A DNA stretch of 64,000 bases. It comes from Chryseolinea sp. GTDB lineage: Bacteria > Bacteroidota > Bacteroidia > Cytophagales > Cyclobacteriaceae. The translations under genes and the position numbers were made by a program. Below are positions 9,620-58,001 of this stretch, piece by piece. Under the pieces are notes generated by a model. That model saw nothing but the letters and a program-made list of their open reading frames with translations. It did no database searches and was not told the DNA's origin. Position 1 is the stretch's first letter; every line of letters starts with the position of its first letter. Where the stretch lies: assembly GCA_031388805.1 (NCBI GenBank), contig JANMRZ010000112.1:17885-81884 (forward strand), read 5' to 3'.

Positions 9620-12600
9620 TTAAGCGATAACAGCGTGTTCTTTTACAGCTTCTATCACTGGCTCTTCCACCTTGCGTGAGTAAGGACGGGAGAAGTACGA
9701 GTACACTGATGGGATAACATAGAGTGTTAATATTCCGGCAAACACTAGTCCACCTACAACGGCAATGCCCAGTGACGTACGACTGCCTGATGAAGTTCCT
9801 AATGATAATGCAATGGGGAGCGTTCCGAAGATCATGGCGAGTGTTGTCATGAGTATGGGGCGGAAACGTGAAGCCGCCGCGGATAACACTGCATCTTTCA
9901 CAGACATGCCTTCTTCTTTACGCTGATTAGCAAATTCAACGATGAGGATACCATTTTTCGTGATCAGTCCGATCAGCATGATGATACCAATTTCACTAAA
10001 CACATTGATCGACTGATTCGTGATCCACAGACTTAACAATGCACCCGTAAGCGCCATCGGCACGGTAAGAAGAATAATGAATGGATCAATCAAACTTTCA
10101 AACTGTGCAGCCAGTACCAGGTAGATGAGAATGATGGCAAAGATGAAAGCAAAGACGAGACTCGAACTGCTTTCAGCATAATCGCGACTTTGTCCCGCCA
10201 GCGTGGTACGGAATCCATCGGGTAATGTATTTTTCGCGATACCATCCATTTCTTTAATGGCTTCACCAAGACTAACACCAGGAGCCGGAGTAGCGGAGAT
10301 GGTGGCACTGTAAGATTGATTGTAGCGATAAATAGCTGGAGGGCTTACACTCTCTTCCATCTTCACCAAATTATCCAGCGAAATCATTTCGCCATTGCCT
10401 GCTTTTAAAAATAGAGAACGGATATCGGAAGGTGTAGAACGTTCTTTCCTGTCCAGCTGACCAATGACTTCGTATTGACGATCGTTATAAATAAAATATC
10501 CGTAGCGTCTCCCGGTTAATGCCAGTTGAAGTGTTCTTCCTATTTCTTGCGTAGAGATTCCGGATTGCGCTGCACGTTGACGGTCAATGGTAATGCCAAT
10601 CTCCGGACGGTTGATTTTAAAATCAGGATCCTGAAAACTTAATTTCTTGCTTTGATAAACATTGCCCATCAGACCCGGCATAACATCGGTGAGTGATTTC
10701 AGATCCGGAGCCTGCACTACATATTGTAAGGGCTGTGAACTGGAGAATCCTCCAATGGTTGGTATTTGTATCGGGATACAGATAACATTTCTAAATTGTC
10801 CAGAAGCGGCGACCAGTTTTTCATAGATCTGTTGTTGTGAAAGGCCACTCTTCCGGTCTTGCGGATCTTTTAAAAATATCCATTGAAATCCGCCATTAAC
10901 GGGTTGTACTAACGTACCCACTGATGCTGCAATACCTGCATAGGTACGATTCTCATTTAAATCAGGAATAGAATCAGAAATGTATTTATTGATCTCTTTC
11001 ATGGTTGCTTCCATACTTTCGTACGATGTTCCTTCGGGAGCAATGACTGCAAGTCCAATCATGGAACGGTCTTCAAGAGGCGCGAGCTCTGAAGGAAGAG
11101 AAGGTGCAAGGACCCAGGCTACACCAAATGAAGCGATCAACAACACAAACCCCAGCCATCTTATTTTAAAGAATAAGTGAAGTGTTCTTTCATAGCCTCT
11201 GTTGAGTGCTTCAAACCAAGGTTCTGTTTTACGATACAGCCATCCGTGTGAAGCGTTGGCTTTCAGTAGATATGCACTCATCATCGGTGACAAAGTCAAT
11301 GCGACAAATGCGGATATCAATACAGATCCTGCCACTACAATAGCAAATTCTTTGAACAAGCGACCGGTAATACCTCCGAGGAAAAGTATCGGCAAGAAAA
11401 CAGCTGCGAGTGTTACGGTGGTGGAAACTACAGCAAAGTAAATTTCATCGGAACCTTTACGGGCAGCTTGTATCGGGCTCATGCCCTGTTCAATCTTGCT
11501 ATAAATATTTTCCAGCACAACAATCGCATCATCCACTACCAGGCCAATCGCCAACACCAACCCCAGCAACGTTAACACATTGATAGAGAAGTCTGCTATG
11601 TACATTATAAAGAAAGCCGAGATGATGGAAACCGGAATGGCTACCAATGGAATGATGGTACTTCTCCAGTCGCGGAGGAAAATGAAAATGATCAGCGCCA
11701 CTAATCCAAAAGCAAGGAATAAAGTCTCTTCAACTTCGGATAATGAATTTCGTACCGGCACAGTAAAATCTTTCCCTAAGGAGATGATGTACTCTTTTGG
11801 TGCCGTCTTTACAATATCCGCAAAACGCGTTTTAAATTCTTCTACGATGGCCAGTGAGTTAGCACCACGTTGTGGCTGCACACCGGTACCCACACCATAA
11901 CGGGTCGTATTACCTTCTCCCACAATCATAGCTGTGCGCTCATTCTGAGAGGACATGATTGCGGTGCCGATATCTTTGAAGTGAACGATGGCTTGATCTT
12001 TTTGAAAAATGATCATGTTGTTAAAATCCTCTTCGGTAACAAGCCGACCTTCAGTCCGTAAAGTCACTTCTGTATTTTCGCCTTCTATTCGTCCGCTGGG
12101 TAAGTCTACGTTCTCACGTTGCAATGCACTCTGAACATCGGATGGAGTAAGCCCATATGAGGCAAGCTTTAGAGGATCCATGCGCAATCGCATGGCGCGT
12201 TTTCTTCCTGCATAGGTGTCTACCAAACGCACTCCTGGAATAGACTGAAGTCTTTCTTTGATGTTAATGTTAACGAAGTCGGTAATGTCTTCCAGACTTC
12301 TGGTGTCACTTTGAACTGTGAGAAAAACCAGGAAGTCCGCGGGTCCCGCCTTCTCTACAATTGTTGGTTCGATATCCGATGGCAATTGCTGACGTGACTT
12401 TGAAACTTTGTCACGCACATCATTGGCCGCTGCTTCGAGGTCGGCATCCAGGTTAAACTCTACGGTAATAATACTCACTTGTTCACGCGATACGGAAGAT
12501 ACTGCCCGTATTCCATTGGCTTCTGCGATGGCTTCCTCTAAAGGTTTTGTTACCTGTGAGGCAATAATATCAGCACTTGCTCCAGGGTATACGGTTGTAA

Positions 12601-29702: not shown

Positions 29703-31865
29703 ATGTCAACTTTATTCAAAACAAACAGACGCGATTTTCTGAAGATGGCTACAACAGCCACAGGTGGATTGATACTGGGATTTCATTGGAACAGTGCTGA
29801 AGCATCATCCATGAAAGTGTTAGATGCTGCTGTGCTTCCTGCTGGTGATATTAATTTCAATAGCTACTTATCCATTTCCTCGGATGATGTGATAACGATT
29901 TTTTCACCGAATCCCGAATTAGGTCAGAATATCAAAACATCTTTTCCCATGATCGTAGCTGAAGAACTGGATGCCGATTGGAAAAAAGTGAAAGTGATAC
30001 AAGCTTCATTAGACACTAAAAAATATGAGCGTCAATTAACCGGTGGGAGCGGTGCGATTCCACATTCATGGGAACGCCTGCGTAAAGCAGGAGCTACTGC
30101 GAAGCAAATGTTAATTGAAGCAGCTGCGAAGAGATGGAATGTTTCTCCTGCTTCATTGAAAGCAGAGAACAGTGTTGTGATGGATGTTGCCGGTGGAAGG
30201 AAACTTACCTATGGTGAACTGGCAACGGAAGCGTCATCGATAACTATTCCAACAGATGTAAAACTTAAAGACAAAAAAGATTTTATACTGATTGGTACCG
30301 CTGTTCATAACGTGGACAATCTGGAAATGATTACCGGTAAGCCACTGTATGGTTTGGATTTCTATCGTGAAGGTATGTTGTTCGCGATGATTCAACGACC
30401 GCTTTCCTTTGGGATGAAAATCAAATCAGTTGATGCAACAGCAGCAAAAGCAATGAATGGAATTGTGGATGTTGTTACCTTTAAAAATAATGTGGCGGTT
30501 GTAGGTAAGTCGACCTGGCAAATCAACAAAGCGCGTAAACTATTAAAGATTGAATACGAGAAAGAAGGTAACATTGAAAGTACATCGGATCACGATCGGA
30601 TTTTTAAAGAATTACTTGATAGTAAAGAAGCGACAGTAAGAAGAAAAGATGGTGATGTTGATGCAGCGTTCAAATCCGCAGCAAAAGTAATTACGCGCGA
30701 ATATCAATGTCCATTTCTTTCACATAGTCCGATGGAGCCAATGAATTTCTTTGCGCATGTGCGTGAAGATGGAGTAGAGTTAGTCGGCCCTTCTCAAACA
30801 CCTGACTTGGCACGCAACGAAATTGCAAAGTTATTGAATGTCGCCCCAGAGAATATCACGCTTGAACTTACTCGATTGGGTGGTGGCTTCGGCCGAAGAT
30901 TAAAAACAGATTATGCATTGGAGGCTGCTGAACTTTCGAGTTTGATTAAAGCACCCGTAAAAGTAATCTGGACGCGTGAAGATGATATGAGCGGAGGAAG
31001 TTATCGGCCTGCAGTTCGGTATCGTTTTGAAGCAGCATTGGATGCTAACGGAAATATGATTGGATACAAATTGCGTGGAGTAGGAATTAATGTGGGTAAT
31101 TCTACCCGCGAGGATAATTTTCCCTCTGGAGCAGTGGATAATCTTTTAATTGATTCCATCGAACACAAGTCACCGATTACAACCGGTGCGTGGCGCGCAC
31201 CGATCACGAATTTTCTTGCCTATGCGGAGCAGGCATTTCTTGATGAAGTAGCGGTTGCAGCCAAGCAAGATCCTGTACAATTCCGATTAAATCTTTTAGA
31301 GCGAGCGAAGAAGACACCAGTGGGTGCAATTAAATATGACATCGATCGTATGAAAGGTGTAATTGAATTGGCTGCGGAAAAATCAGGATGGGGTAAAAAG
31401 AAAAATATACATCAAGGATTTTCAGTTTACTTTTCACATCGTTCGTATGTAGCGCAAGTCGCAGAGGTAACGATGAAAAATGGTAAACCCATGATTCAGA
31501 AAATTTATGCGGCTGCCGATTGTGGCATTGTCGTAAACTTAAGCGGGGCATATCAACAAGTGAAGGGTGGAATAGTAGATGGTATGGGGCACGCACTTTT
31601 TGGAAACCTGACTTTTAAAGACGGAGCTGTCGAACAAAGAAATTATAATAGTTATCGGTTGATCCGGATGAAAGAAGTTCCTGAGGTGGAAGTTCACTTT
31701 GTGAATAATGGAATTGATCCAACAGGTTTAGGTGAACCCGCGCTTCCACCAACAGGAGGTGCTATTGCAAATGCTATATTCAAAGCAACAGGTAAGCGGT
31801 TGTATAATCAGCCTTTTAATAAACAGGAGGAAATGCAAGGGGTTAATTTAGGAGAGAGAATGTAG
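29703..31865 (+). CDS. Molybdopterin-binding subunit (IorB-like) with a Tat signal
   Basis: NRRDFLK twin-arginine motif; ELGQNI, GGGFGRR, WRAP, GLGEP. Confidence 0.9.
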   Translation: MSTLFKTNRRDFLKMATTATGGLILGFHWNSAEASSMKVLDAAVLPAGDINFNSYLSISSDDVITIFSPNPELGQNIKTSFPMIVAEELDADWKKVKVIQASLDTKKYERQLTGGSGAIPHSWERLRKAGATAKQMLIEAAAKRWNVSPASLKAENSVVMDVAGGRKLTYGELATEASSITIPTDVKLKDKKDFILIGTAVHNVDNLEMITGKPLYGLDFYREGMLFAMIQRPLSFGMKIKSVDATAAKAMNGIVDVVTFKNNVAVVGKSTWQINKARKLLKIEYEKEGNIESTSDHDRIFKELLDSKEATVRRKDGDVDAAFKSAAKVITREYQCPFLSHSPMEPMNFFAHVREDGVELVGPSQTPDLARNEIAKLLNVAPENITLELTRLGGGFGRRLKTDYALEAAELSSLIKAPVKVIWTREDDMSGGSYRPAVRYRFEAALDANGNMIGYKLRGVGINVGNSTREDNFPSGAVDNLLIDSIEHKSPITTGAWRAPITNFLAYAEQAFLDEVAVAAKQDPVQFRLNLLERAKKTPVGAIKYDIDRMKGVIELAAEKSGWGKKKNIHQGFSVYFSHRSYVAQVAEVTMKNGKPMIQKIYAAADCGIVVNLSGAYQQVKGGIVDGMGHALFGNLTFKDGAVEQRNYNSYRLIRMKEVPEVEVHFVNNGIDPTGLGEPALPPTGGAIANAIFKATGKRLYNQPFNKQEEMQGVNLGERM

Positions 31866-32080
31866 GTTTGATTATTTCTATAGTGCATATTCATTCATGT
31901 AGGCTGATTTATTAGGTCGTATGTTTTGAGATGTAAGTTTTAATGAGTGACATAATATTTTTCTAGCAAGCTCGTAGAGGCATTCAGTATTTTGAATCTC
32001 TGCATGTAATGAAGAGTGCTTGCATCTATCCACTTTCAGAGCAGACGCGCGTGGTGTCAAGAGCATTTCATATTTAGATT

Positions 32081-32300
32081 GTAGGCGCGCGTACTAAAAC
32101 AAGAATGGGGCAACTCGCTCGTGGCGAGTTGCCCCATTCTTGTTTTAGTAAATCCCTCACAGCAATCTTGCTACTAGCAAGATTGCTGTGAGGGATTCTT
32201 TTTGCGCGGCCTGCTTGTGAATTCTGTGATTCGATTTTTCACTCCGCGCATGGCACACTTTTATTCTGTTCAAAAAATCTTTTTTAATAAAGAATCTTAA
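32081..32300 (+). repeat. Multi-hairpin repeat element, copy A (candidate structured ncRNA or non-autonomous mobile element)
   Basis: 27-bp perfect stem (32092-32150), 23-bp perfect palindrome (32151-32197), third stem TGCGCGG/CCGCGCA; homologous to 35662..35880. Confidence 0.8.
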
Positions 32301-32411
32301 GTAGCCATCTCTTCAACTTGTTTTTTTTGGGCGTAGCAAACTAAAATTTTACTCAAGTTTTTTTTTGCAAAAATCATACTTTAAATTACAACAAACCCTA
32401 ACCCTAACTCT

Positions 32412-35348
32412 ATGAAAACCTGCTTTGCAAGAACGCCTTCTTTACCGTTATTAACCAGCGTCATCCTACTGTTCTTCGCGCAGTTATCCATGGCACAACG
32501 GGCTGAGCCTGTAATTACCAACATAACCCACGGAGGCCGTGCGCTGGCAATTGCTACCCGGCATGATAATCCCGATCACTTGATAGTTGCTTCCGAAACC
32601 GGTGGCCTCTTTCGGTCGGCCGATGGTGGATCTAACTGGCGACAAGTGAGTGGTAATTTTACATATGAATTTTCTCATGTGGCTTTTGCTCCCTTTAATA
32701 ATCAACTCGTTATCGCAACAGCGTACAAAGATTTTCGGAAAGTATCCGGTGGCGGTATCTGGCGCAGTACAAATAGCGGGGGTAGCTTTACAAAAGTAAG
32801 TACACCTTTGGAAGGATGCAGTAAACGAGAAGAAGCTTTCGCAGTTGCTTTTGAACCCAACTCCACACGCATCTGGACAGGTACTGCGTGCGGCTTGTTT
32901 TATAGTGACGATGAAGGATCGACCTGGACGGCTTTACCTGCCAGCGGCTCATATACAAGACAGCCCATTTATGCTGTTAAGGTTCCGGCACCGGGGAAAT
33001 TAAGAATCATGACGGCTAATTCAGTGCTTATAAGTGAAGACCGTGGCATAACCTGGTTTACTTCCTCTGTAGGAGTGCCTACTACCATTGTTGATTACAA
33101 TCAAAGTAAATCTTTTAATCAACTTGCTGTTTCTCCTCTTGATCCGAATCATATTTTTTGGGCAGTTGCCTTTAATGAAGAACGATACTTCAATGACCAG
33201 AATGGCGTTAGGCAAAGAATACTAGCTGCTATTACGGCCATCTTTCTCTCCACCGATAATGGTGTAAGTTGGAGGGAACTTCATCGCGAAGAACTCCCTC
33301 GCCACAATCGGCCAGTATCCGTAATACTCACAAGCGGTAACGGCACCTTGTATGAGTTGTACTTTAATAATGGCGTCGGCTCAAGCAAAGCTCTTATCGG
33401 TACCATTAATAACCAGTTGCAAGCCGGAGCTTGGCTTCCACTCGCCTCCATACCACATCTGGATAACATTGATGTTTCCTTTTTAGCGGATGGCCGCACG
33501 CTGAATATGCTTGCGGGTGATGGCGGCATTTATAAAACTACTAATAACGGCAGAACATTTACTCCGGCAGGGTTTCACCGTAATGGATATAATGCCTTGC
33601 AACTGTACCAGGTGGCTGGGCAATTAAAAAACGGAACTAACACATCAACACTCTATTTAGGCACACAGGATAACGGATTTTGGTCTTCTACCATTGCGAA
33701 TGGTGTAAGTTCAACCTGGCCGGAAAGTCAGTCTTTATCAGGCGAAGGACGTTTCATTGAATTGCTTAGGCGCCACACCGGAGGATTGAATGCAGTTACC
33801 GGTACTTATTGCTGTAGTCGATTTATTGCAGATCCTCTATTCCAAAACTCAAGAACGTTTCCCGGTTGCCCCGGCGAAGCAGAAGCGCCCAAGTTGCTCG
33901 GTGTACCAGCGCACTATCTACAGCAGTCTACGTGGAGCATGGACTACGGTACACCTTACTTTTTTTCATTTGGCCTCGGATCATGGCAATCCAGGTTTAA
34001 CATTAGCCGTGGTGAGTTGCCTTCAAGCTTTCCTCAAATAAGCGGAAGAAATAGTGCCGACCCTGTGGTATTTATCACGACACGATCGAACAATTCCAAT
34101 ATGCCCCATGAGGAATTGCAACGGATCACGGGAGTGATGAACCTCTCAAGCGGAACCCCCATCAAATCAACTATAGAAGGTTATGGAAAGATGGGAGCTT
34201 CCAACATCGGCTTCGCTTTTGAAAGACTCTTTGCAGTCAATCCAAAAGACCCTTATCACATTATCGTTCCTGATTTGGATAGTGGGAGGGTGCGCGTGAC
34301 ATATACCGGAGGCCGCACGTGGGAGTACGATGATGTGCTCACTAACTTGGTGACTGATAATGGCACGTTTATGTTTAATCAAAGCGATACCTTATTTATT
34401 TCCGCTATCAATTTCCACCCCGACAACACCAATACTATTCTTGTAGGTACGCGACAAAATGGTGCCTTCCTCACCAATGATCGTGGGACCACCTGGAAAA
34501 AGATTGAGAACAGTGAGAACATTCCCCTCATCACTTCATTTTATTTTGAATCAGAAGGAGCCGAGATCTCAAGCTATGGTCGCGGGTTGTGGCATATCCC
34601 CTCCATTGCAAAAGAATTACCTAAAGTCCACTATGAAAAGTATTTGCAGTGGCTGCCATATTTTTATCGTGGATGTTTCTTTCCATTGAATTCTATCATC
34701 CATCCGGAAGAATTAAATGCCGTAAGGCTTATGAGCGTAAATAAGGGATGCATCACAGGTTATGAAACCGATGAAGAAGGAAATCTGACTTCTATTTACA
34801 TCGACAAAGGTGAAGTTACTGTTATGGACTTGGCGGGTATGCCTGATAAGAAGTTTGATATTCCCGTGAAGATCGGAAAAGGAAAAGTCACTGGCATAGA
34901 CGAAGAGGCACAGCTAACAGCAAGAAAAAATAAATGGAATATTAAAGGACTCCTGATTGAAGGCAAAAAATTAAAAGGTCCCGTGTACTTTGGCAAAGAT
35001 CTTAACGCTGAGCATTTGCCAAAGCCCCGGAAAGAAGGGCATTTCTTTGCACTCAACCTTCCCCCTACCGCTGATGGTTATCGCATTAGTTCCTTCACCG
35101 ATGATGTGCAACTGCAAGGTTCAGGTTGGGATCCGTCCACGCCAATCCAGATACTGATGGATGGCCAAACCTGGCAAGATAAGGTCGAGCCCAAATTTGA
35201 TTCAAACGGAAACTTGCAGATGTCTTTGTATTTGTCTCCATCCTTAGGCAAGCACACCCTGACACTATCACAAAAGACAACAACAGGTTTTCTTAGTGCC
35301 TCTACGGTCATCAATTATAACTTTGATGAAGAGTATGAAGAAAAATAA
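32412..35348 (+). CDS. Secreted BNR/Asp-box beta-propeller protein with an unrecognised C-terminal region
   Basis: Signal peptide; eight Asp-box-like motifs (SADGGSNW, STNSGGSF, SDDEGSTW, SEDRGITW, STDNGVSW, TTNNGRTF, TYTGGRTW, TNDRGTTW). Confidence 0.75.
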   Translation: MKTCFARTPSLPLLTSVILLFFAQLSMAQRAEPVITNITHGGRALAIATRHDNPDHLIVASETGGLFRSADGGSNWRQVSGNFTYEFSHVAFAPFNNQLVIATAYKDFRKVSGGGIWRSTNSGGSFTKVSTPLEGCSKREEAFAVAFEPNSTRIWTGTACGLFYSDDEGSTWTALPASGSYTRQPIYAVKVPAPGKLRIMTANSVLISEDRGITWFTSSVGVPTTIVDYNQSKSFNQLAVSPLDPNHIFWAVAFNEERYFNDQNGVRQRILAAITAIFLSTDNGVSWRELHREELPRHNRPVSVILTSGNGTLYELYFNNGVGSSKALIGTINNQLQAGAWLPLASIPHLDNIDVSFLADGRTLNMLAGDGGIYKTTNNGRTFTPAGFHRNGYNALQLYQVAGQLKNGTNTSTLYLGTQDNGFWSSTIANGVSSTWPESQSLSGEGRFIELLRRHTGGLNAVTGTYCCSRFIADPLFQNSRTFPGCPGEAEAPKLLGVPAHYLQQSTWSMDYGTPYFFSFGLGSWQSRFNISRGELPSSFPQISGRNSADPVVFITTRSNNSNMPHEELQRITGVMNLSSGTPIKSTIEGYGKMGASNIGFAFERLFAVNPKDPYHIIVPDLDSGRVRVTYTGGRTWEYDDVLTNLVTDNGTFMFNQSDTLFISAINFHPDNTNTILVGTRQNGAFLTNDRGTTWKKIENSENIPLITSFYFESEGAEISSYGRGLWHIPSIAKELPKVHYEKYLQWLPYFYRGCFFPLNSIIHPEELNAVRLMSVNKGCITGYETDEEGNLTSIYIDKGEVTVMDLAGMPDKKFDIPVKIGKGKVTGIDEEAQLTARKNKWNIKGLLIEGKKLKGPVYFGKDLNAEHLPKPRKEGHFFALNLPPTADGYRISSFTDDVQLQGSGWDPSTPIQILMDGQTWQDKVEPKFDSNGNLQMSLYLSPSLGKHTLTLSQKTTTGFLSASTVINYNFDEEYEEK

Positions 35349-35661
35349 ATATCCTAAATAATTCTCGGTTGATGAATACGTTGATTCGGTAATTTAGAGA
35401 CATTACAGCCTCACTTTGACCGCATACAATTGGCGAGGGCGTATTCGGAATGGTATTTGGCTATTGTATTTCAATGTCAATATTTTTTTGAAGGAGGGAG
35501 CGTGGCTCTAAACTTGGGGTATAATCTGTAAGTAGAAGACAAGTTTGCTTACTCTGTTGTAGTTCCAGACTCAATATCCTCGTGGACACCATACAAATGT
35601 TAACTTCTATCTACTTTCGGAGTAAATGCACGACAGGTCAAAAGCATTCTATAGGTAAATG

Positions 35662-35880
35662 GAAGGCCTGCGTTAAAATGCAAGAAAGGGCAACTTGCTT
35701 CTGGCGAGTTGCCCTTTCTTGTGTCAGTAAATTCCTCACTGCAATCTTGCTACTAGCAAGATTGCAGTGAGGAATTCTTTTTGCGCGGCCTGCTTGTGAA
35801 CTTCTGTGCTTCGATTTTCGCTCTGCGCAATGCACACTTTTTATTCTGTGTGGAGAGTCTTTTACAATAAAGAATCTTAA
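35662..35880 (+). repeat. Multi-hairpin repeat element, copy B
   Basis: 18-bp stem with one G-T pair (35681-35721), perfect 23-bp palindrome (35730-35776), CTTTTTGCGCGGCCTGCTTGTGAA identical to copy A, and the shared end AATAAAGAATCTTAA. Confidence 0.8.
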
Positions 35881-35899
35881 CTCCGATGACGAGTTTTAC

Positions 35900-38800
35900 T
35901 TATTCTGTCCTGGCACCGGATTCAATATTCTCCTGAACATCATACGAATGTTTACTTTCTTTTTGCTGATATTCTTTTGGTGACAATCCAAATTCAGTTT
36001 TGAAACACTTGGAAAAGTAGGATAAATTAGAGAAGCCTACTTCGTACATAATCTCAGAGATGTTACCTTCTTTATTTTTCAGCAGCAACGAAGCTTTTTT
36101 GATTCTATATTTTTTTATGATTTCGTTAGCCGATATGTGTGTTAAGGACTTAAGCTTGCGATAGAGATGTGTTGAACTCATTCCCATTTCTTCGCTCAAC
36201 ACTTCTACACTAAACTCATTATTGGAAATATTGGCTTCGATGGTGTTCATCACTTTCTTTAAAAACCGATCGTCTTCATTTTCTTTTCCTGATTCGGTTT
36301 GAGGTTGTGTGATGAGTTCGTGTTTAAAATATTGAGCAAGCTCTTCTTTTCTTTCCAGGAGATGGTCGATGTGTGCTTCCAGTAATTCTACTTCGAATGG
36401 TTTGGTGAGGTAGATATCTGCCCCCATTCGTATACCTTCAATCTTGTGTGTGGTAAGACTTTTGGCAGTTAGCAATATGATGGGTATGTGACTCGTCTTA
36501 TTATCCTGTTTTACTTTTTTGCACAGTTCAAGTCCATCCATTACGGGCATCATAATGTCACTGATGATGATCTCAGGTAGCAGCATGTGTGCCTTGTGTA
36601 ATCCATCTTCACCATTCTCTGCAGTTATAAAATTATATTTCTCTTTTAGGGAAAGGAGAATGAAGTCAATCATATCTACATTATCTTCTACCAAAAGGAT
36701 CAATGGTTTTTTCGAACGTAAATTAAATTGATACTGTTGATCCGCACTTTCCGCTGGCTTTGTTGCAAGAATGTTTATTTCTTTTCCTTCCAGACTTTTA
36801 TCAACTGGAAAATGTGCATCACCTAAGGGTAAGTAAATGTTAAAGTTACTGCCCATACCTTTGCTGCTGATCAATTTGATTTCACCGCGATGTAACTTGG
36901 TGTACTCAGCAACCAGTGTCAAACCAATTCCTGATCCATCTTCCATTATTTTTGCATCGGTTGATTGATAGAATTGTTCGAATATTTTTGTTTGCTCTTC
37001 TTGCGCGATGCCAATGCCTGAATCAATGACTGAAAGTCTAACAGCACCATTGTTAAAAGCTACTGTATTATCAAGGTCAATCGTAAATTCTATTTTCCCT
37101 TTTTTCGGAGTGAACTTAAAAGCATTTGAGAGGAGATTGAAAATAATAATCTCTACTTTTTCTTTGTCGGCCCAAACCTGGCACTCTTTGATTTTAGTTT
37201 TAAATGTAAAATCAATTTCGTTTCGCGCGGCACGGTCAGAAAAAAGACTAAACAAATCCTGACTGAAGGGTACAAGATCAAACCAGCTTATTTTAAGCGA
37301 TTGATTTTCATGCTCCAGTTTTCTGAAATCCAAAACCTGATTGATAAGACGAAGCAAGCGCTGTGAGTTTTTCTCTGCTAAGGTTATCAGGCTTTTATTC
37401 TCCTCATTCAGATTTCCTTTTTTTAATATTTGCTGAAGGGGTGGAATAATCAAACTGATAGGTGTTCTTAATTCGTGTGATATGTTGGTGAAGAATTGTT
37501 GTTTGGTTTGTACAATTTCTTCTGCATGATCTTTTTGAAGAAGCGCAATTTTTAGTTCGTTCTTTAGTTTGATACGAATTACATAAATCCGAAGTGAAAT
37601 GATAAGAGTGGCCAGCGCCAGGATAGCATACATAAAAATAAAAGCTGGACTTAAAAATAAAGGAGGCTTAACAATGATTTTCACAGAGGCTACCTTGTTG
37701 CTCCATACTCCGTAGTTATTCGTTCCCTTAACATAGAGTGTATAGCTTCCAGATGAAAGATTGGAATAGACAGCAAAGTTTTTCAACCCGGAAACATATT
37801 TCCAGTCGTCATCAAATCCTTCGAGCTTGTAGGCGTAAACATTAATGTCGGGTTGCCAATAATGGAGAGAAGAGAATTCAAAGGTTACGGAGCGTTGGGC
37901 ATAATCTAATGTGAGATCTTTGGTAAACGATATGTCTTCTGTTAAAATCACTTGATCGTTTATCTCATGGTTAGGCAAAACGATTTTGTTGTTTAATTCC
38001 AGCGATGTGATGAGAACATCCGGCTGATAGTGATTTGGTTTAATATCAGTTTGAAAGGTTATGTAGCCGTTGTCACCACCGAATATTAATTCACCATCAT
38101 TATTCTTCGCTGAACAATCGGTGTAAAATGTTTTCAGTGGCAAGTCTTTGTCCAGTGGAAATAGTTCAGTTGTATTCTCGCTGGGTGAAAATTTGAGAAC
38201 AAATTTATCGGCAGCAGCCCAGATGTTTCCAAAATTATCGCTGATGATATTATTCAAGTCAATATCGTTACCGGTAACAATGGGATGAAAGATTGCGGAA
38301 TCAATACCCGGTTTGTATTCAATAAGACCATTCAATGTACCTGTCCACAAACTTCCTTTTGTTGAATAATACGGACTATAAATGTCTTTGCCTTTAGCGA
38401 TAGCATTGAAGGCTTGCACTTTTTTTGTTGCGTATGAGCTTAAATCGATCCGGTATAATTCATTTGCATGGACTCCCCATAGTGCATTTAGGGCATAGGT
38501 ATTTTTCTCAGAAGCGAAATCGCCTACAAATTCAAATCGGATGTTGGTCAGATCATCAAATCCTGAAACCACTTTAAAGAGACCGCCTTCCCAGGCACTT
38601 ACCCAAAATGATCCATCAGCTCCTTTAATAAATTTTGCAATGTAATTTGAAGTCAACTTGTTTTCAGTGTTAGCAGTGATGGCATGCATCACTTGCTTTT
38701 TTTCATCCCACACATTGATACCTCCGGCCGTTCCGATCCAGATTCTTTCCTGGTCATCTTCTTCGAGCGTAAACACATTATTGAGGAGTAACCGATCTGA

Positions 38801-39985
38801 CGATGCTGATTCAATGTCAAATGTTTTTTGTGTATTCTTTTGCTGATCGATTCGAATCACACCATGAATGGTGGCAATCCATAAAATACCTTTCTTCGAA
38901 ACGAGTATCGACTTCACCTGATTTCCTACAGTCTTATCGCCAATCTTATGGTTTACTTCGTGATAGGTAAACAGGTGATTGTATTTGTTAATGATGCTGA
39001 GCCCATTGGATGTTGCTACCCACACTACACCACCTTCATCTTCTGCAATTTGCCAGATTACATTGTTGGCAATCGAATAGGATACTTGGGGATTATGGAA
39101 ATAAGCTGTTATCTTTTTTGTTTTTGGATCAAACAAATTCAAACCAAAGTCCGAACCTAGCCACAGATTTCCATCAGCATCTGTGTAAACATTCTTGATT
39201 ACTTCATTGCTGAATTTTGTATTGTCACTTCTATAATGGGTGAAGGTGTGATTAGACGTGTTTAGTAAACATAAACCCGTTTCGGTTCCGATCCATAATA
39301 AGGAGTCGGCATGCGCAACAGGTTTAATATCGCATATTAAATTGTTCTTTAGTTCGGGTTTGTAGTTGCCTTTTAAATCAATAGTTTCAAATGTATCACT
39401 GGTACTATTTAGCTTGTTGAGTTTGTCGTATGTACCTACCCAAAGATTCCCATTAATATCCTGATGGATTGTCCGAATAGTGTTGTGGCTCAAGGCACTA
39501 TTTTCAGTTGTGTAATATTTGAATGAATTATCGGATGCAGCGAATCGAATCAGCCCGTTTGATGTACCGATCCAGATATTTTTTTGCTTGTCTTTATAGA
39601 GTGTTCGAATGGCAATGTTCTCTTTTAGATTGATTCGTGTGATCTGAAAATTCCGAACATTGATTTTACACAATCCACGCCAGGTGCCGACCCAAACAAA
39701 ATCATCGTCAACAAGCAACGAACTGATCTCATTCGCAGACAATGAATTTTCATCTTCTCCTCTTTTAAAAATTTTAAAGCCATTGCCATCATATCGCGCC
39801 AGACCGTTAGCGGTACCAACCCAAATAAAATGGTAACGATCTTGGGTAATTGCGCTGATGATATTAGAAGGTAATCCATCGCGAGTGGAAAGTGTGGAAA
39901 AGAAAAGAGATTGCCCTGATGCGGTAACCGAAACGATAACCAACACCACTATTAATCTGAACATCAATCGAAATCGCGATAGCAT
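35900..39985 (-). CDS. Hybrid two-component system (HTCS) regulator
   Basis: Signal peptide, WIGT/GL beta-propeller repeats, Y_Y_Y domain, TM helix, ISHELRTP, HATPase, REC (DIMMP), AraC HTH (VGFSNLSYFSKCFK). Confidence 0.95.
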   Translation of the reverse strand: MLSRFRLMFRLIVVLVIVSVTASGQSLFFSTLSTRDGLPSNIISAITQDRYHFIWVGTANGLARYDGNGFKIFKRGEDENSLSANEISSLLVDDDFVWVGTWRGLCKINVRNFQITRINLKENIAIRTLYKDKQKNIWIGTSNGLIRFAASDNSFKYYTTENSALSHNTIRTIHQDINGNLWVGTYDKLNKLNSTSDTFETIDLKGNYKPELKNNLICDIKPVAHADSLLWIGTETGLCLLNTSNHTFTHYRSDNTKFSNEVIKNVYTDADGNLWLGSDFGLNLFDPKTKKITAYFHNPQVSYSIANNVIWQIAEDEGGVVWVATSNGLSIINKYNHLFTYHEVNHKIGDKTVGNQVKSILVSKKGILWIATIHGVIRIDQQKNTQKTFDIESASSDRLLLNNVFTLEEDDQERIWIGTAGGINVWDEKKQVMHAITANTENKLTSNYIAKFIKGADGSFWVSAWEGGLFKVVSGFDDLTNIRFEFVGDFASEKNTYALNALWGVHANELYRIDLSSYATKKVQAFNAIAKGKDIYSPYYSTKGSLWTGTLNGLIEYKPGIDSAIFHPIVTGNDIDLNNIISDNFGNIWAAADKFVLKFSPSENTTELFPLDKDLPLKTFYTDCSAKNNDGELIFGGDNGYITFQTDIKPNHYQPDVLITSLELNNKIVLPNHEINDQVILTEDISFTKDLTLDYAQRSVTFEFSSLHYWQPDINVYAYKLEGFDDDWKYVSGLKNFAVYSNLSSGSYTLYVKGTNNYGVWSNKVASVKIIVKPPLFLSPAFIFMYAILALATLIISLRIYVIRIKLKNELKIALLQKDHAEEIVQTKQQFFTNISHELRTPISLIIPPLQQILKKGNLNEENKSLITLAEKNSQRLLRLINQVLDFRKLEHENQSLKISWFDLVPFSQDLFSLFSDRAARNEIDFTFKTKIKECQVWADKEKVEIIIFNLLSNAFKFTPKKGKIEFTIDLDNTVAFNNGAVRLSVIDSGIGIAQEEQTKIFEQFYQSTDAKIMEDGSGIGLTLVAEYTKLHRGEIKLISSKGMGSNFNIYLPLGDAHFPVDKSLEGKEINILATKPAESADQQYQFNLRSKKPLILLVEDNVDMIDFILLSLKEKYNFITAENGEDGLHKAHMLLPEIIISDIMMPVMDGLELCKKVKQDNKTSHIPIILLTAKSLTTHKIEGIRMGADIYLTKPFEVELLEAHIDHLLERKEELAQYFKHELITQPQTESGKENEDDRFLKKVMNTIEANISNNEFSVEVLSEEMGMSSTHLYRKLKSLTHISANEIIKKYRIKKASLLLKNKEGNISEIMYEVGFSNLSYFSKCFKTEFGLSPKEYQQKESKHSYDVQENIESGARTE

Positions 39986-57482: not shown

Positions 57483-58001
57483 GACCTACCTTAATTGTAA
57501 TCTAAAATACAAAACAGTTCGCTGATCTGGATTTTTCAATTCGGATTTTAAAAGAGTATCACTTCCAAAATGGGATGTAATAAGAATAGCACGAACTTCC
57601 TTCAGGTTAACAAAAAGTCTTAAAATTTAATAATCTGAACGGTTTTCAGGTTAGTTCTTTCACAGACAATGCAAAATAGATCAGTCTCTGTATCCATTCG
57701 AAACAAGTTCAAATGCAATTCAATGATCAATAAAAAAGCGTGCAAGTTTTGAAAATCTGTAAATGCTCTTTCTTTGCGGGGTGAAATGATTTGAACATTC
57801 AATCACACTACCTTTGACGGGATGCAAGGCATTCCTTTACTTGTGAATTTACTTTTGTGATGATTGTGAGTAGAGTCGTGACGCAAGATTACTAGTGCTT
57901 CCAACGTAATAACAGTGCAACGATGCACTGTAGAAAATAATGTAAACATGATACATAACGAAGTGAATAAGAGATTATCTTCCTAAAACAATCTCTACAA
58001 G

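Follow-up and report, generated by a model that had tools for sequence, protein, structure and literature searches.

What accounts for two diverged copies of one foldable repeat on either side of a single, lineage-specific gene? The question arises in a 64,000-nt stretch of a Chryseolinea sp. assembly (GCA_031388805.1, contig JANMRZ010000112.1, positions 17,885 to 81,884 of the forward strand; referred to below as the window), where a gene for a 978-residue (978-aa) protein lies between two direct repeats, here called copy A and copy B. An earlier note, made from the sequence alone, had proposed a new structured RNA or a non-autonomous mobile element, selected for its fold as a single strand. 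We find that the two copies belong, as diverged members, to a modular and palindromic family of intergenic repeats that is lineage-restricted. The family is new and of a known general kind, that of repetitive extragenic palindromic (REP) sequences, bacterial interspersed mosaic elements (BIMEs) and miniature inverted-repeat transposable elements (MITEs), with an unusual four-helix architecture. In the explanation that we prefer, to which we give a probability of roughly 0.55, the unit is a terminator-bearing palindromic repeat that also serves as a substrate for recombination.

Architecture of the repeat family

The assembly (6.3 Mb in 210 contigs; G000 below) was searched with BLAST and then with nhmmer, which located about 33 family loci, all intergenic, of which 14 are complete. 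A unit measures ~290 nt and has four helices, M1, H1, H2 and M3, which were recovered by RNAalifold as well as by a covariance model. It is laid out as a conserved 5' lead-in, M1, H1, H2, a T-rich run and M3, followed by GCAC.C..... The M1 module consists of an 8-bp GC-rich stem around a conserved loop of ~35 nt (...GGACAATTGCATTTCATA..TAAAT.GTAGG), whose sequence is kept among paralogues and between species, and M3 of a 6-bp stem, GCGCGG...CCGCGC, around a loop of ~40 nt. Between them stand H1 and H2, perfect hairpins of 20-27 bp that vary in sequence from copy to copy and are fixed in combined length, the M1-M3 spacing being constant at 99-112 nt. M1 and M3 are in roughly inverted orientation within the unit. 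The nhmmer signal between M1 and the reverse complement of M3 is weak and register-consistent (18 matches of 2-7 bits vs. 0-1 in shuffles), which is suggestive of homology between the two modules; this is clearer in genus g71, where a relative of the family is almost symmetric (M1-H1-H2-reverse-complement M1).

The family had not been described before. A comparison of positions 31000-37000 with Rfam (cmscan, E<=1), which had been proposed as a check in the earlier note, gave no family match at the gathering threshold: the best score was 30 bits against a cut-off of 80 bits and came from chance miRNA/snoRNA hairpins. No similar sequence was found in plasmid and phage collections, and neither strain variants nor the M1 box turned up in metagenomes (0 matches).

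Several further features were considered and rejected. Because the M1 arms covary with each other while the M3 arms stay constant, an alternative cross-pairing of M1 with M3 is unsupported. A helix closing the 5' and 3' ends into a five-way junction fares no better: the end sequences are conserved without covariation, and cognate pairs are no better than non-cognate ones (permutation p=0.09). An 11-codon minus-strand frame in the M1 consensus is not kept in copy A, and the Bacteroidota-type promoter motif TAnnTTTG, read by eye, is not conserved on either consensus strand.

About 16 contig ends of G000 fall inside copies, so the palindromes break the short-read assembly. Contig C78 opens (positions 1-201) with a perfect 200-nt palindrome, M1-H1-reverse-complement(M1); either this is a truly symmetric variant like that of genus g71, or the assembly of short reads produced it as an artefact at a hairpin. 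In contig C75 (29889-30242) an M1 module runs abruptly into sequence that is very rich in GC and unlike the remainder of the genome, which is likely a chimeric contig end or a contaminant join.

Compensatory changes and palindrome dynamics

The covariance model was used to align 39 copies from G000 and its sister genome G055. In this alignment 96.6% of the cells assigned to a helix pair, compared with 73% in shuffles and 34-42% when partners are slid. Double changes are seen in 46 of the 57 pairs, a value that 0 of 500 shuffles reach, and they touch every helix: 19 of 21 pairs in H1, 19 of 22 in H2, five of eight in M1 (where 93.6% of cells pair) and three of six in M3 (e.g. GAGCGG/CCGCTC in copy C155). 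The compensatory change that had been noticed between A and B is thus general across the family and extreme relative to shuffles. The arms of M1 occur, among others, as ATGTGCG/CGCACAT, ACGCGCG/CGCGCGT, ATGCACG/CGTGCAT, AGGCGCG/CGCGCCT and ATACGCG/CGCGTAT.

Which kinds of pair are tolerated differs between the helices. The cells of H1 comprise 782 Watson-Crick pairs, 5 G-T and 9 A-C, and those of H2 810, 7 and 11, respectively, so that wobble amounts to ~1% with no excess on the + strand over the - strand. In M1, T-G pairs outnumber C-A pairs by 10 to 1 on the + strand, and in M3 by 12 to 7. The excess of G-U pairs on the + strand that the earlier note had reported holds for copies A and B themselves (7 vs. 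2 and 9 vs. 2) and for M1, but not for H1 and H2 across the family. Choosing a strand by folding energy or by G-U totals proved uninformative (-1422 vs. -1403 kcal/mol; 63 vs. 53 G-U).

Moreover, the loops of the H hairpins are found reverse-complemented between copies with the same stems, in orthologues as well as in recent duplicates: CTTCTGG / CCAGAAG in the orthologues C52 and L070, CAGTG / CACTG in C128 and L071, TACAA / TTGTA in C100 and C51, and GAATC / GATTC in two tandem copies of L077. Replication template switching is documented to produce compensated changes together with loop inversions, and in functional RNA hairpins such inversions are very rare (PMC8794818); the same process perfects inverted repeats in bacteria (PMC5941160). 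Given almost no wobble, no strand preference and loops that invert, the sequences indicate that H1 and H2 evolve as DNA palindromes. Stems of Watson-Crick pairs only, loop flips and the random orientation described below point to such palindrome dynamics or to a function that works in both directions, not to one RNA strand, and the selection on a + sense single strand that had been put forward fails for these two helices.

The two copies at C100:9575-9863 and C51:434-732, between which the H2 loop is flipped, are ~82% identical versions of one locus. Because both match one and the same G055 region, they suggest strain heterogeneity in the assembly, which is possibly a metagenome bin.

Gene context and likeness to terminators

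In G000 the occupied gaps are convergent in nine cases, tandem in seven (four copies co-oriented, three anti) and divergent in two. The 20 loci of G055 are distributed in much the same way, with nine convergent, nine tandem (four co-oriented, five anti) and two divergent gaps. Copies are enriched at the 3' ends of genes, avoid promoter regions and have no orientation preference. A first count, in which 18 of 26 copies lay on the same strand as the upstream gene, was an artefact of the enrichment in convergent gaps, since these fix the strand relation by definition and the tandem gaps give 4:3 and 4:5. No recurrent gene stands beside the copies, whether Y1 transposase, recombinase, integrase or any other; by a rough estimate, the response-regulator and extracytoplasmic-function sigma-factor genes among the neighbours are probably merely abundant families.

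A terminator scan marks H1 of A, H2 of A and H2 of B as terminator-like on the + strand and finds no other such + strand site between the stop codon of the upstream iorB-like gene and A, or between that of the 978-aa gene and B. Most of the 39 copies have a T-rich tract after H2. The hairpins H1 and H2 are of the same type as the ordinary intrinsic terminators of G000 (A-run, stem, T-run), and with a GC-containing hairpin, a T-run and a position downstream of a transcription unit they are candidate intrinsic terminators. Perfect hairpins with stems of >=16 bp number 114 in G000; 83 lie outside the family, and the examples listed among these have the same A-run/T-run form. One convergent gap (C26) holds a lone 25-bp hairpin in G000, two element copies in the related genome G049 and three in G055. 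The lone hairpin (C26:6783-6880) is perfect, its arms being three runs of the word (G)CACATAG.

Distribution and turnover

For each genome 50 candidates were scored with the model, and the counts include weaker opposite-strand matches. Within the genus, the family is abundant in no more than four species (G000, G055, G049 and G017, with 36-49 matches each), sparse in four others (1-8 matches) and without a match in the other 32. Sixteen other families of the order gave no match, and diverged relatives occur in three of the 132 other genera sampled in the family.

When the flanks of the 20 G055 copies are compared with G000, most loci prove to be orthologous. Eight orthologous pairs are clean: in these, identity is 72-90% in M1 and 45-90% in H1/H2, which are still paired; the sequence flanking these elements aligns poorly. 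Some loci are filled in one species and empty in another, so that the presence/absence polymorphism raised in the earlier note does exist between species. Arrays of 2-4 units, half-units and a deletion derivative joining M1 to M3 are also found. The arrays contain no open reading frames (ORFs), occur in G049 as well, and differ in copy number between species at the same loci. Identity between nearest paralogues is at most 73-83%, so no burst has occurred recently. Synteny breakpoints coincide with copies.

Three tandem arrays on contig C1 of G055, at 3708525-3709401 (L088), 4431213-4432039 (L080) and 1931340-1932086 (L087), contain 3-4 whole or partial units with periods of ~150-290 nt, one of them being an array of M1+H1 half-units.

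Copies A and B and the gene between them

The features of the locus are collected in Table 1. In a longer pairwise alignment the homology between A and B begins ~70 nt upstream of the start given in the earlier note, and therefore the GTAG at 32081, which had been taken for a REP-like beginning of copy A, is not the first base of the element. It is internal, in the loop of M1 (32044-32093), a stem-loop that had been overlooked, and the analogy with REP drawn from it is unsupported because it relied on a mis-set boundary. Otherwise, sequence reading, the repeat finder and the alignment agree on two direct-repeat copies with the stems as described. H1, the former stem 1, changes from AATGGGG/CCCCATT to AAAGGG/CCCTTT; H2, the former stem 2, has 23-nt arms around one base and shows both compensated substitutions between A and B; and M3, the former stem 3, is kept as TGCGCGG/CCGCGCA in A and with a G-T wobble in B. 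The inner stem GTGAA/TTCAC, said to be kept, is confined to one subfamily, and instead of one invariant 24-mer the repeat finder gives runs of 25 and 27 nt as the longest common to A and B. The AAGAGYG box of copy A forms a weak terminal inverted repeat with the GCRCNCTYT of the 3' end.

Table 1. Features of the repeat copies, the enclosed gene and its neighbours, in window positions
Feature	Position	Strand	Description
Copy A, whole	32009-32269	+	covariance-model match; A/B-specific homology on to 32300
Copy A, 5' end	32009..32043	+	AAGAGYG box and CTTCTATCYAC.TTCAG lead-in (covariance model, family alignment)
Copy A, module M1	32044..32093	+	8-bp GC-rich stem GACGCGCG / CGCGCGTA, conserved ~35-nt loop ending GTAGG
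Copy A, hairpin H1	32092..32150	.	27-bp perfect arms 32092-32118 / 32124-32150, 5-nt loop, A-run and T-run either side (inverted repeat I2)
Copy A, hairpin H2	32151..32203	.	23-bp perfect arms, 1-nt centre (32151-32197), then CTTTTT (inverted repeat I3)
Copy A, module M3	32204..32249	+	6-bp stem GCGCGG / CCGCGC, ~35-nt loop
Copy A, 3' tail	32250..32300	+	GCACAC TTTTATTCTGT family-wide; onward to AATAAAGAATCTTAA common to A and B only
Copy B, whole	35590-35848	+	covariance-model match; A/B-specific homology on to 35880
Copy B, 5' end and degenerate M1	35590..35674	+	AATGCACG / CCTGCGTT, one mismatch, one wobble
Copy B, hairpin H1	35681..35721	.	18-nt arms 35681-35698 / 35704-35721, 94% complementary, one T-G wobble (inverted repeat I7)
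Copy B, hairpin H2	35730..35782	.	23-bp perfect arms, one central base (35730-35776), then CTTTTT (inverted repeat I4)
Copy B, module M3 and 3' tail	35783..35880	+	GCGCGG / CTGCGC
Cargo gene, 978 aa	32412..35348	+	secreted BNR/Asp-box, Sortilin-Vps10-type beta-propeller protein (Pfam)
Left flank, iorB-like	29703..31865	+	molybdopterin-binding subunit, aldehyde-oxidase/isoquinoline-oxidoreductase type (Pfam); conserved, syntenic in sisters
Right flank	35900-39985	-	hybrid two-component sensor, convergent

A search of 39 other genomes of the genus gave no homologue of the 978-aa gene at E<=1e-20. The best database relative of its product is 48% identical, the named relatives belong to Chitinophagaceae, and relatives of the gene elsewhere have no element beside them. 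Its GC content is 43-47%, compared with 36-42% in the neighbouring genes. The iorB-like gene has orthologues of 90-91% identity in sister species, and a 2Fe-2S subunit gene is also among the surrounding genes. In G055 the iorB-like gene (91%) and the sensor gene (90%) are still neighbours, with three unrelated genes between them that are absent from G000. Homology with G055 ends ~30 nt after the iorB-like stop codon and resumes at the sensor stop codon; A and B lie 115 nt and 20 nt, respectively, inside the edges of the segment that differs, and copy B thus ends 20 nt from the stop codon of the sensor gene. These observations support the view of a lineage-specific gene with A and B at the edges of a segment unlike the sister locus. 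The empty site that the earlier note had envisaged, iorB joined to the sensor gene with one copy, was not found: the G055 locus carries three other genes and no element, so that it does not amount to a simple empty site with a single copy. Downstream of the iorB-like gene, the other sister genomes lack the element too.

Within the pair, H1 and H2 are shared between A and B (80% and 90%), and M1 and M3 of each are closer to those of other copies. This mosaic is the reverse of the pattern seen between orthologues and indicates exchange between copies. A second case is found at locus L102 of G055, where the direct copies E1 and E2 enclose three genes and the flanks are adjacent in G000. That the pair mobilised the 978-aa gene thus has circumstantial support from the edge position, the lineage specificity of the gene and this second case, but the simplest mechanism would be homologous recombination or gene conversion among the dispersed copies and not a dedicated transposase.

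The three genes of L102 lie elsewhere in G000 and are bracketed there by a different small repeat (GTTGCCACGAATGCACGAATTAAAATGCAC...ATCTGCG), which has at least five loci in that genome; it occurs on both sides of the three genes (C122:9150-9187 and 11936-12002) and also at the 'empty' site (C112:~7990-8060). The slot downstream of the iorB-like gene differs in content among G000, G055 and G017; in G017 (C192:32474-32581, L064) it holds, ~1.2 kb downstream of that gene, a GIY-YIG pseudogene fragment.

Proposed role: a terminator-bearing palindrome and recombination substrate

How would such a repeat act? We propose that H1 and H2 would serve as transcription terminators or insulators from both sides, two-way termination being an assumption of this explanation. 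Copy A would end the iorAB-like unit, and copy B would end the 978-aa gene, facing the convergent sensor gene. Template switching within the palindrome during replication would largely keep the pairing perfect, producing compensatory changes instantly and inverting loops on the way; selection may contribute by favouring a fold functional on both strands, and selection on one RNA strand would not be the cause. The dispersed copies would provide portable homology, so that recombination at or between them could move, amplify or replace adjacent DNA. We infer that recombination between copies is the most economical origin of the arrangement 'A - lineage-specific gene - B'. As to the loops of M1 and M3, our guess is that they might be a protein-binding site or the recognition ends of whatever dispersed the element.

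Several points weigh against this explanation. The conservation of the M1 and M3 loops across species is left unexplained by a role in termination. The M1 stem covaries across a loop of ~35 nt and accepts T-G but not C-A on the + strand: six independent loci have ATGCGCG/CGCGCGT, and none has the reciprocal form. This wobble bias is a modest sign that, for M1, one strand may fold as RNA or as single-stranded DNA (ssDNA). The minus strand has no good T-run at H1 or H2, and the syntenic G055 locus is without any element. No target-site duplication was seen, the junctions being unreadable because the intergenic DNA is too diverged between species. Finally, the recombination origin of the A-gene-B arrangement is drawn from mosaicism and position.

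Could the repeat instead be a structured RNA? It would then be a cis-acting 3'-untranslated region (3'-UTR) module, in which M1 and the terminator hairpins would govern stability or processing of the upstream mRNA, or a small RNA whose M1 loop would bind protein or RNA. Covariation in all four helices is what one would expect of such a molecule, as are the + strand wobble bias of M1 and M3, their loops kept between species amid poorly aligning intergenic DNA, and the T-run after H2, as at a transcript end; with no Rfam match, it would be new. We nevertheless regard a structured RNA as unlikely. H1 and H2 have hardly any wobble, no + strand excess and freely inverting loops, a behaviour very rare in functional RNAs (PMC8794818), and because orientation is random in tandem contexts, a 3'-UTR role cannot be general. 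The promoter motif TAnnTTTG is conserved on neither strand of the consensus, and M3 would lie beyond the transcript if H2 terminates it. Moreover, copies decay, halve and get lost, and their distribution is patchy even inside one genus.

The wobble bias of M1 and the covarying stems would also suit folded ends that are recognised as ssDNA, with M1 and M3 as the ends and G[TC]AGG as a cleavage-proximal tag of an element moved by a Y1/HUH transposase, similar to REP sequences with their REP-associated tyrosine transposases (RAYTs) or to IS200/IS605 elements and their palindrome-associated derivatives (PATEs). The conserved G[TC]AGG stands directly 5' of the GC-rich 3' arm of M1, with a mirror in M3; Y1_Tnp genes are present, with four matches in G000, at least one of them a pseudogene; and the distribution is patchy, with loci that vary in presence. 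We still judge this account improbable. Y1_Tnp (PF01797) is found in 39 of the 40 genus genomes whether or not the element is there, and neither a Y1 nor any other recurrent gene is near the copies, so that the suggested link to an HUH transposase finds no support. The GTAG is placed within a loop of 35 nt and not, as in REP, 5' of a short hairpin, a target-site motif could not be defined, and there has been no recent burst, given the divergence of the nearest paralogues and the orthology of most loci. In the complete genome G055 there is no clear switch between replichores (a rough count gives ~10+/5- vs. 7+/10-, with the position of the origin not known).

There is little, in our estimation, to favour the idea that an undescribed system shifts 'element - cargo - element' units from one intergenic slot to another, with the repeats as its folded ends or recombination sites; M1 and M3 would be recognised by its enzyme as stem-loops in single-stranded form, which would account for the + strand wobble bias, and the hairpins would insulate the cargo. 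Least plausible, and in our opinion very improbable, is a gene-cassette recombination site similar in logic to integron attC, at which a site-specific recombinase would move 'cargo + site' units: two independent element-cargo-element cases do lie at junctions of species-variable segments (the window and L102 of G055) and structure is conserved while hairpin sequence varies, as in attC, but most copies are solitary at orthologous positions between conserved core genes, the arrays are without ORFs, no recurrent integrase or recombinase is near, relatives of the cargo gene elsewhere lack the element, and the flanking copies are mosaic and only ~70-80% identical, which homologous recombination or gene conversion fits as well or better.

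Comparison with known repeat systems

Among the closest parallels to the family are the REP, BIME and REPIN systems of Proteobacteria, which include palindromic repeats tagged with GTAG (PMC3733652), REPINs (PMC3116915) and REP-BIMEs with Y1 transposases (PMC3333891). Like these, the family is extragenic and located at gene 3' ends, palindromic, mosaic and modular, and present in tens of copies per genome, with clusters and arrays. It follows an inverted-dimer logic, which is weak here (M1 vs. reverse-complement M3) and clear in genus g71, and has a conserved G[TC]AG motif adjoining a GC-rich stem. For REPs, the proposed roles include termination and mRNA protection. The differences are nevertheless considerable. 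The unit of ~290 nt with four helices contrasts with the 20-40-nt hairpin of REP, and the two long, perfect hairpins at its centre are hypervariable in sequence. G[TC]AGG closes a ~35-nt loop on its 3' side, with only the 3' arm of M1 after it, whereas the REP tag directly precedes its stem on the 5' side. The family has no linked RAYT gene, and the host belongs to Bacteroidota, for which the REP survey lists only CGTC-type repeats. As to the features of PATEs derived from IS200/IS605, a wobble bias on one strand is seen in M1, no copy is linked to Y1, and the replichores of G055, whose origin position is not known, show no clear bias.

Bacterial MITEs and long intergenic repeats such as Correia/NEMIS, ERIC, RUP, BOX and bcr1 are non-coding, foldable sequences of 100-300 nt that are dispersed and patchy, some of them carrying terminators. 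The present family is likewise non-coding, foldable, dispersed in intergenic DNA and patchy among relatives. Of the marks of a MITE, terminal inverted repeats that match an insertion-sequence (IS) family and target-site duplications, it shows only a weak 8-nt terminal inverted repeat without covariation, and no target-site duplication was seen at its unreadable junctions. Unlike those of MITEs, its copies are old and diverged instead of near-identical, with central hairpins of variable sequence and constant length.

With an A-run, stem and T-run in H1, a stem and T-run in H2, and a place between convergent genes, the unit also resembles bidirectional intrinsic terminators. It differs from these in that the hairpins are always paired, have a fixed total length and stand between conserved modules, the whole being repeated genome-wide. 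Watson-Crick-only pairing, instantly compensated changes and loop inversion are shared with inverted repeats maintained by template switching (PMC8794818, PMC5941160). In comparison to integron attC, structure is likewise more conserved than sequence and copies bracket a variable gene segment in two cases; however, attC is a single bulged hairpin of 57-141 nt, and the repeats described here have four helices in ~290 nt, no integrase nearby and no R/L core sites, and are mostly solitary at conserved loci.

The family adds a well-defined repeat with a covariance model to a phylum whose intergenic repeats are poorly described. It also provides a natural example of textbook compensatory covariation in long hairpins that evolve as DNA palindromes, and hence a caution for RNA-motif discovery pipelines that treat covariation as proof of RNA function. 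As a marker of synteny breakpoints and of the edges of species-specific genes, it bears on genome rearrangement and on the insulation of acquired genes. Should the M modules be ends recognised by an enzyme, they would belong to a new mobilisation system.

GIY-YIG genes and remnants

GIY-YIG nuclease genes show no link to the copies. Within the window, a remnant of a GIY-YIG domain with two in-frame TAA stops lies at 57804-57956 on the - strand. Elsewhere in G000 (C153:900-1700), a small GIY-YIG nuclease gene stands between direct copies of a repeat of ~110 nt (GAAGTCCCTGACATCG.AGC.CGG.ATTCCATAGGTCAAAGACTTCTCAGTCGCG...).

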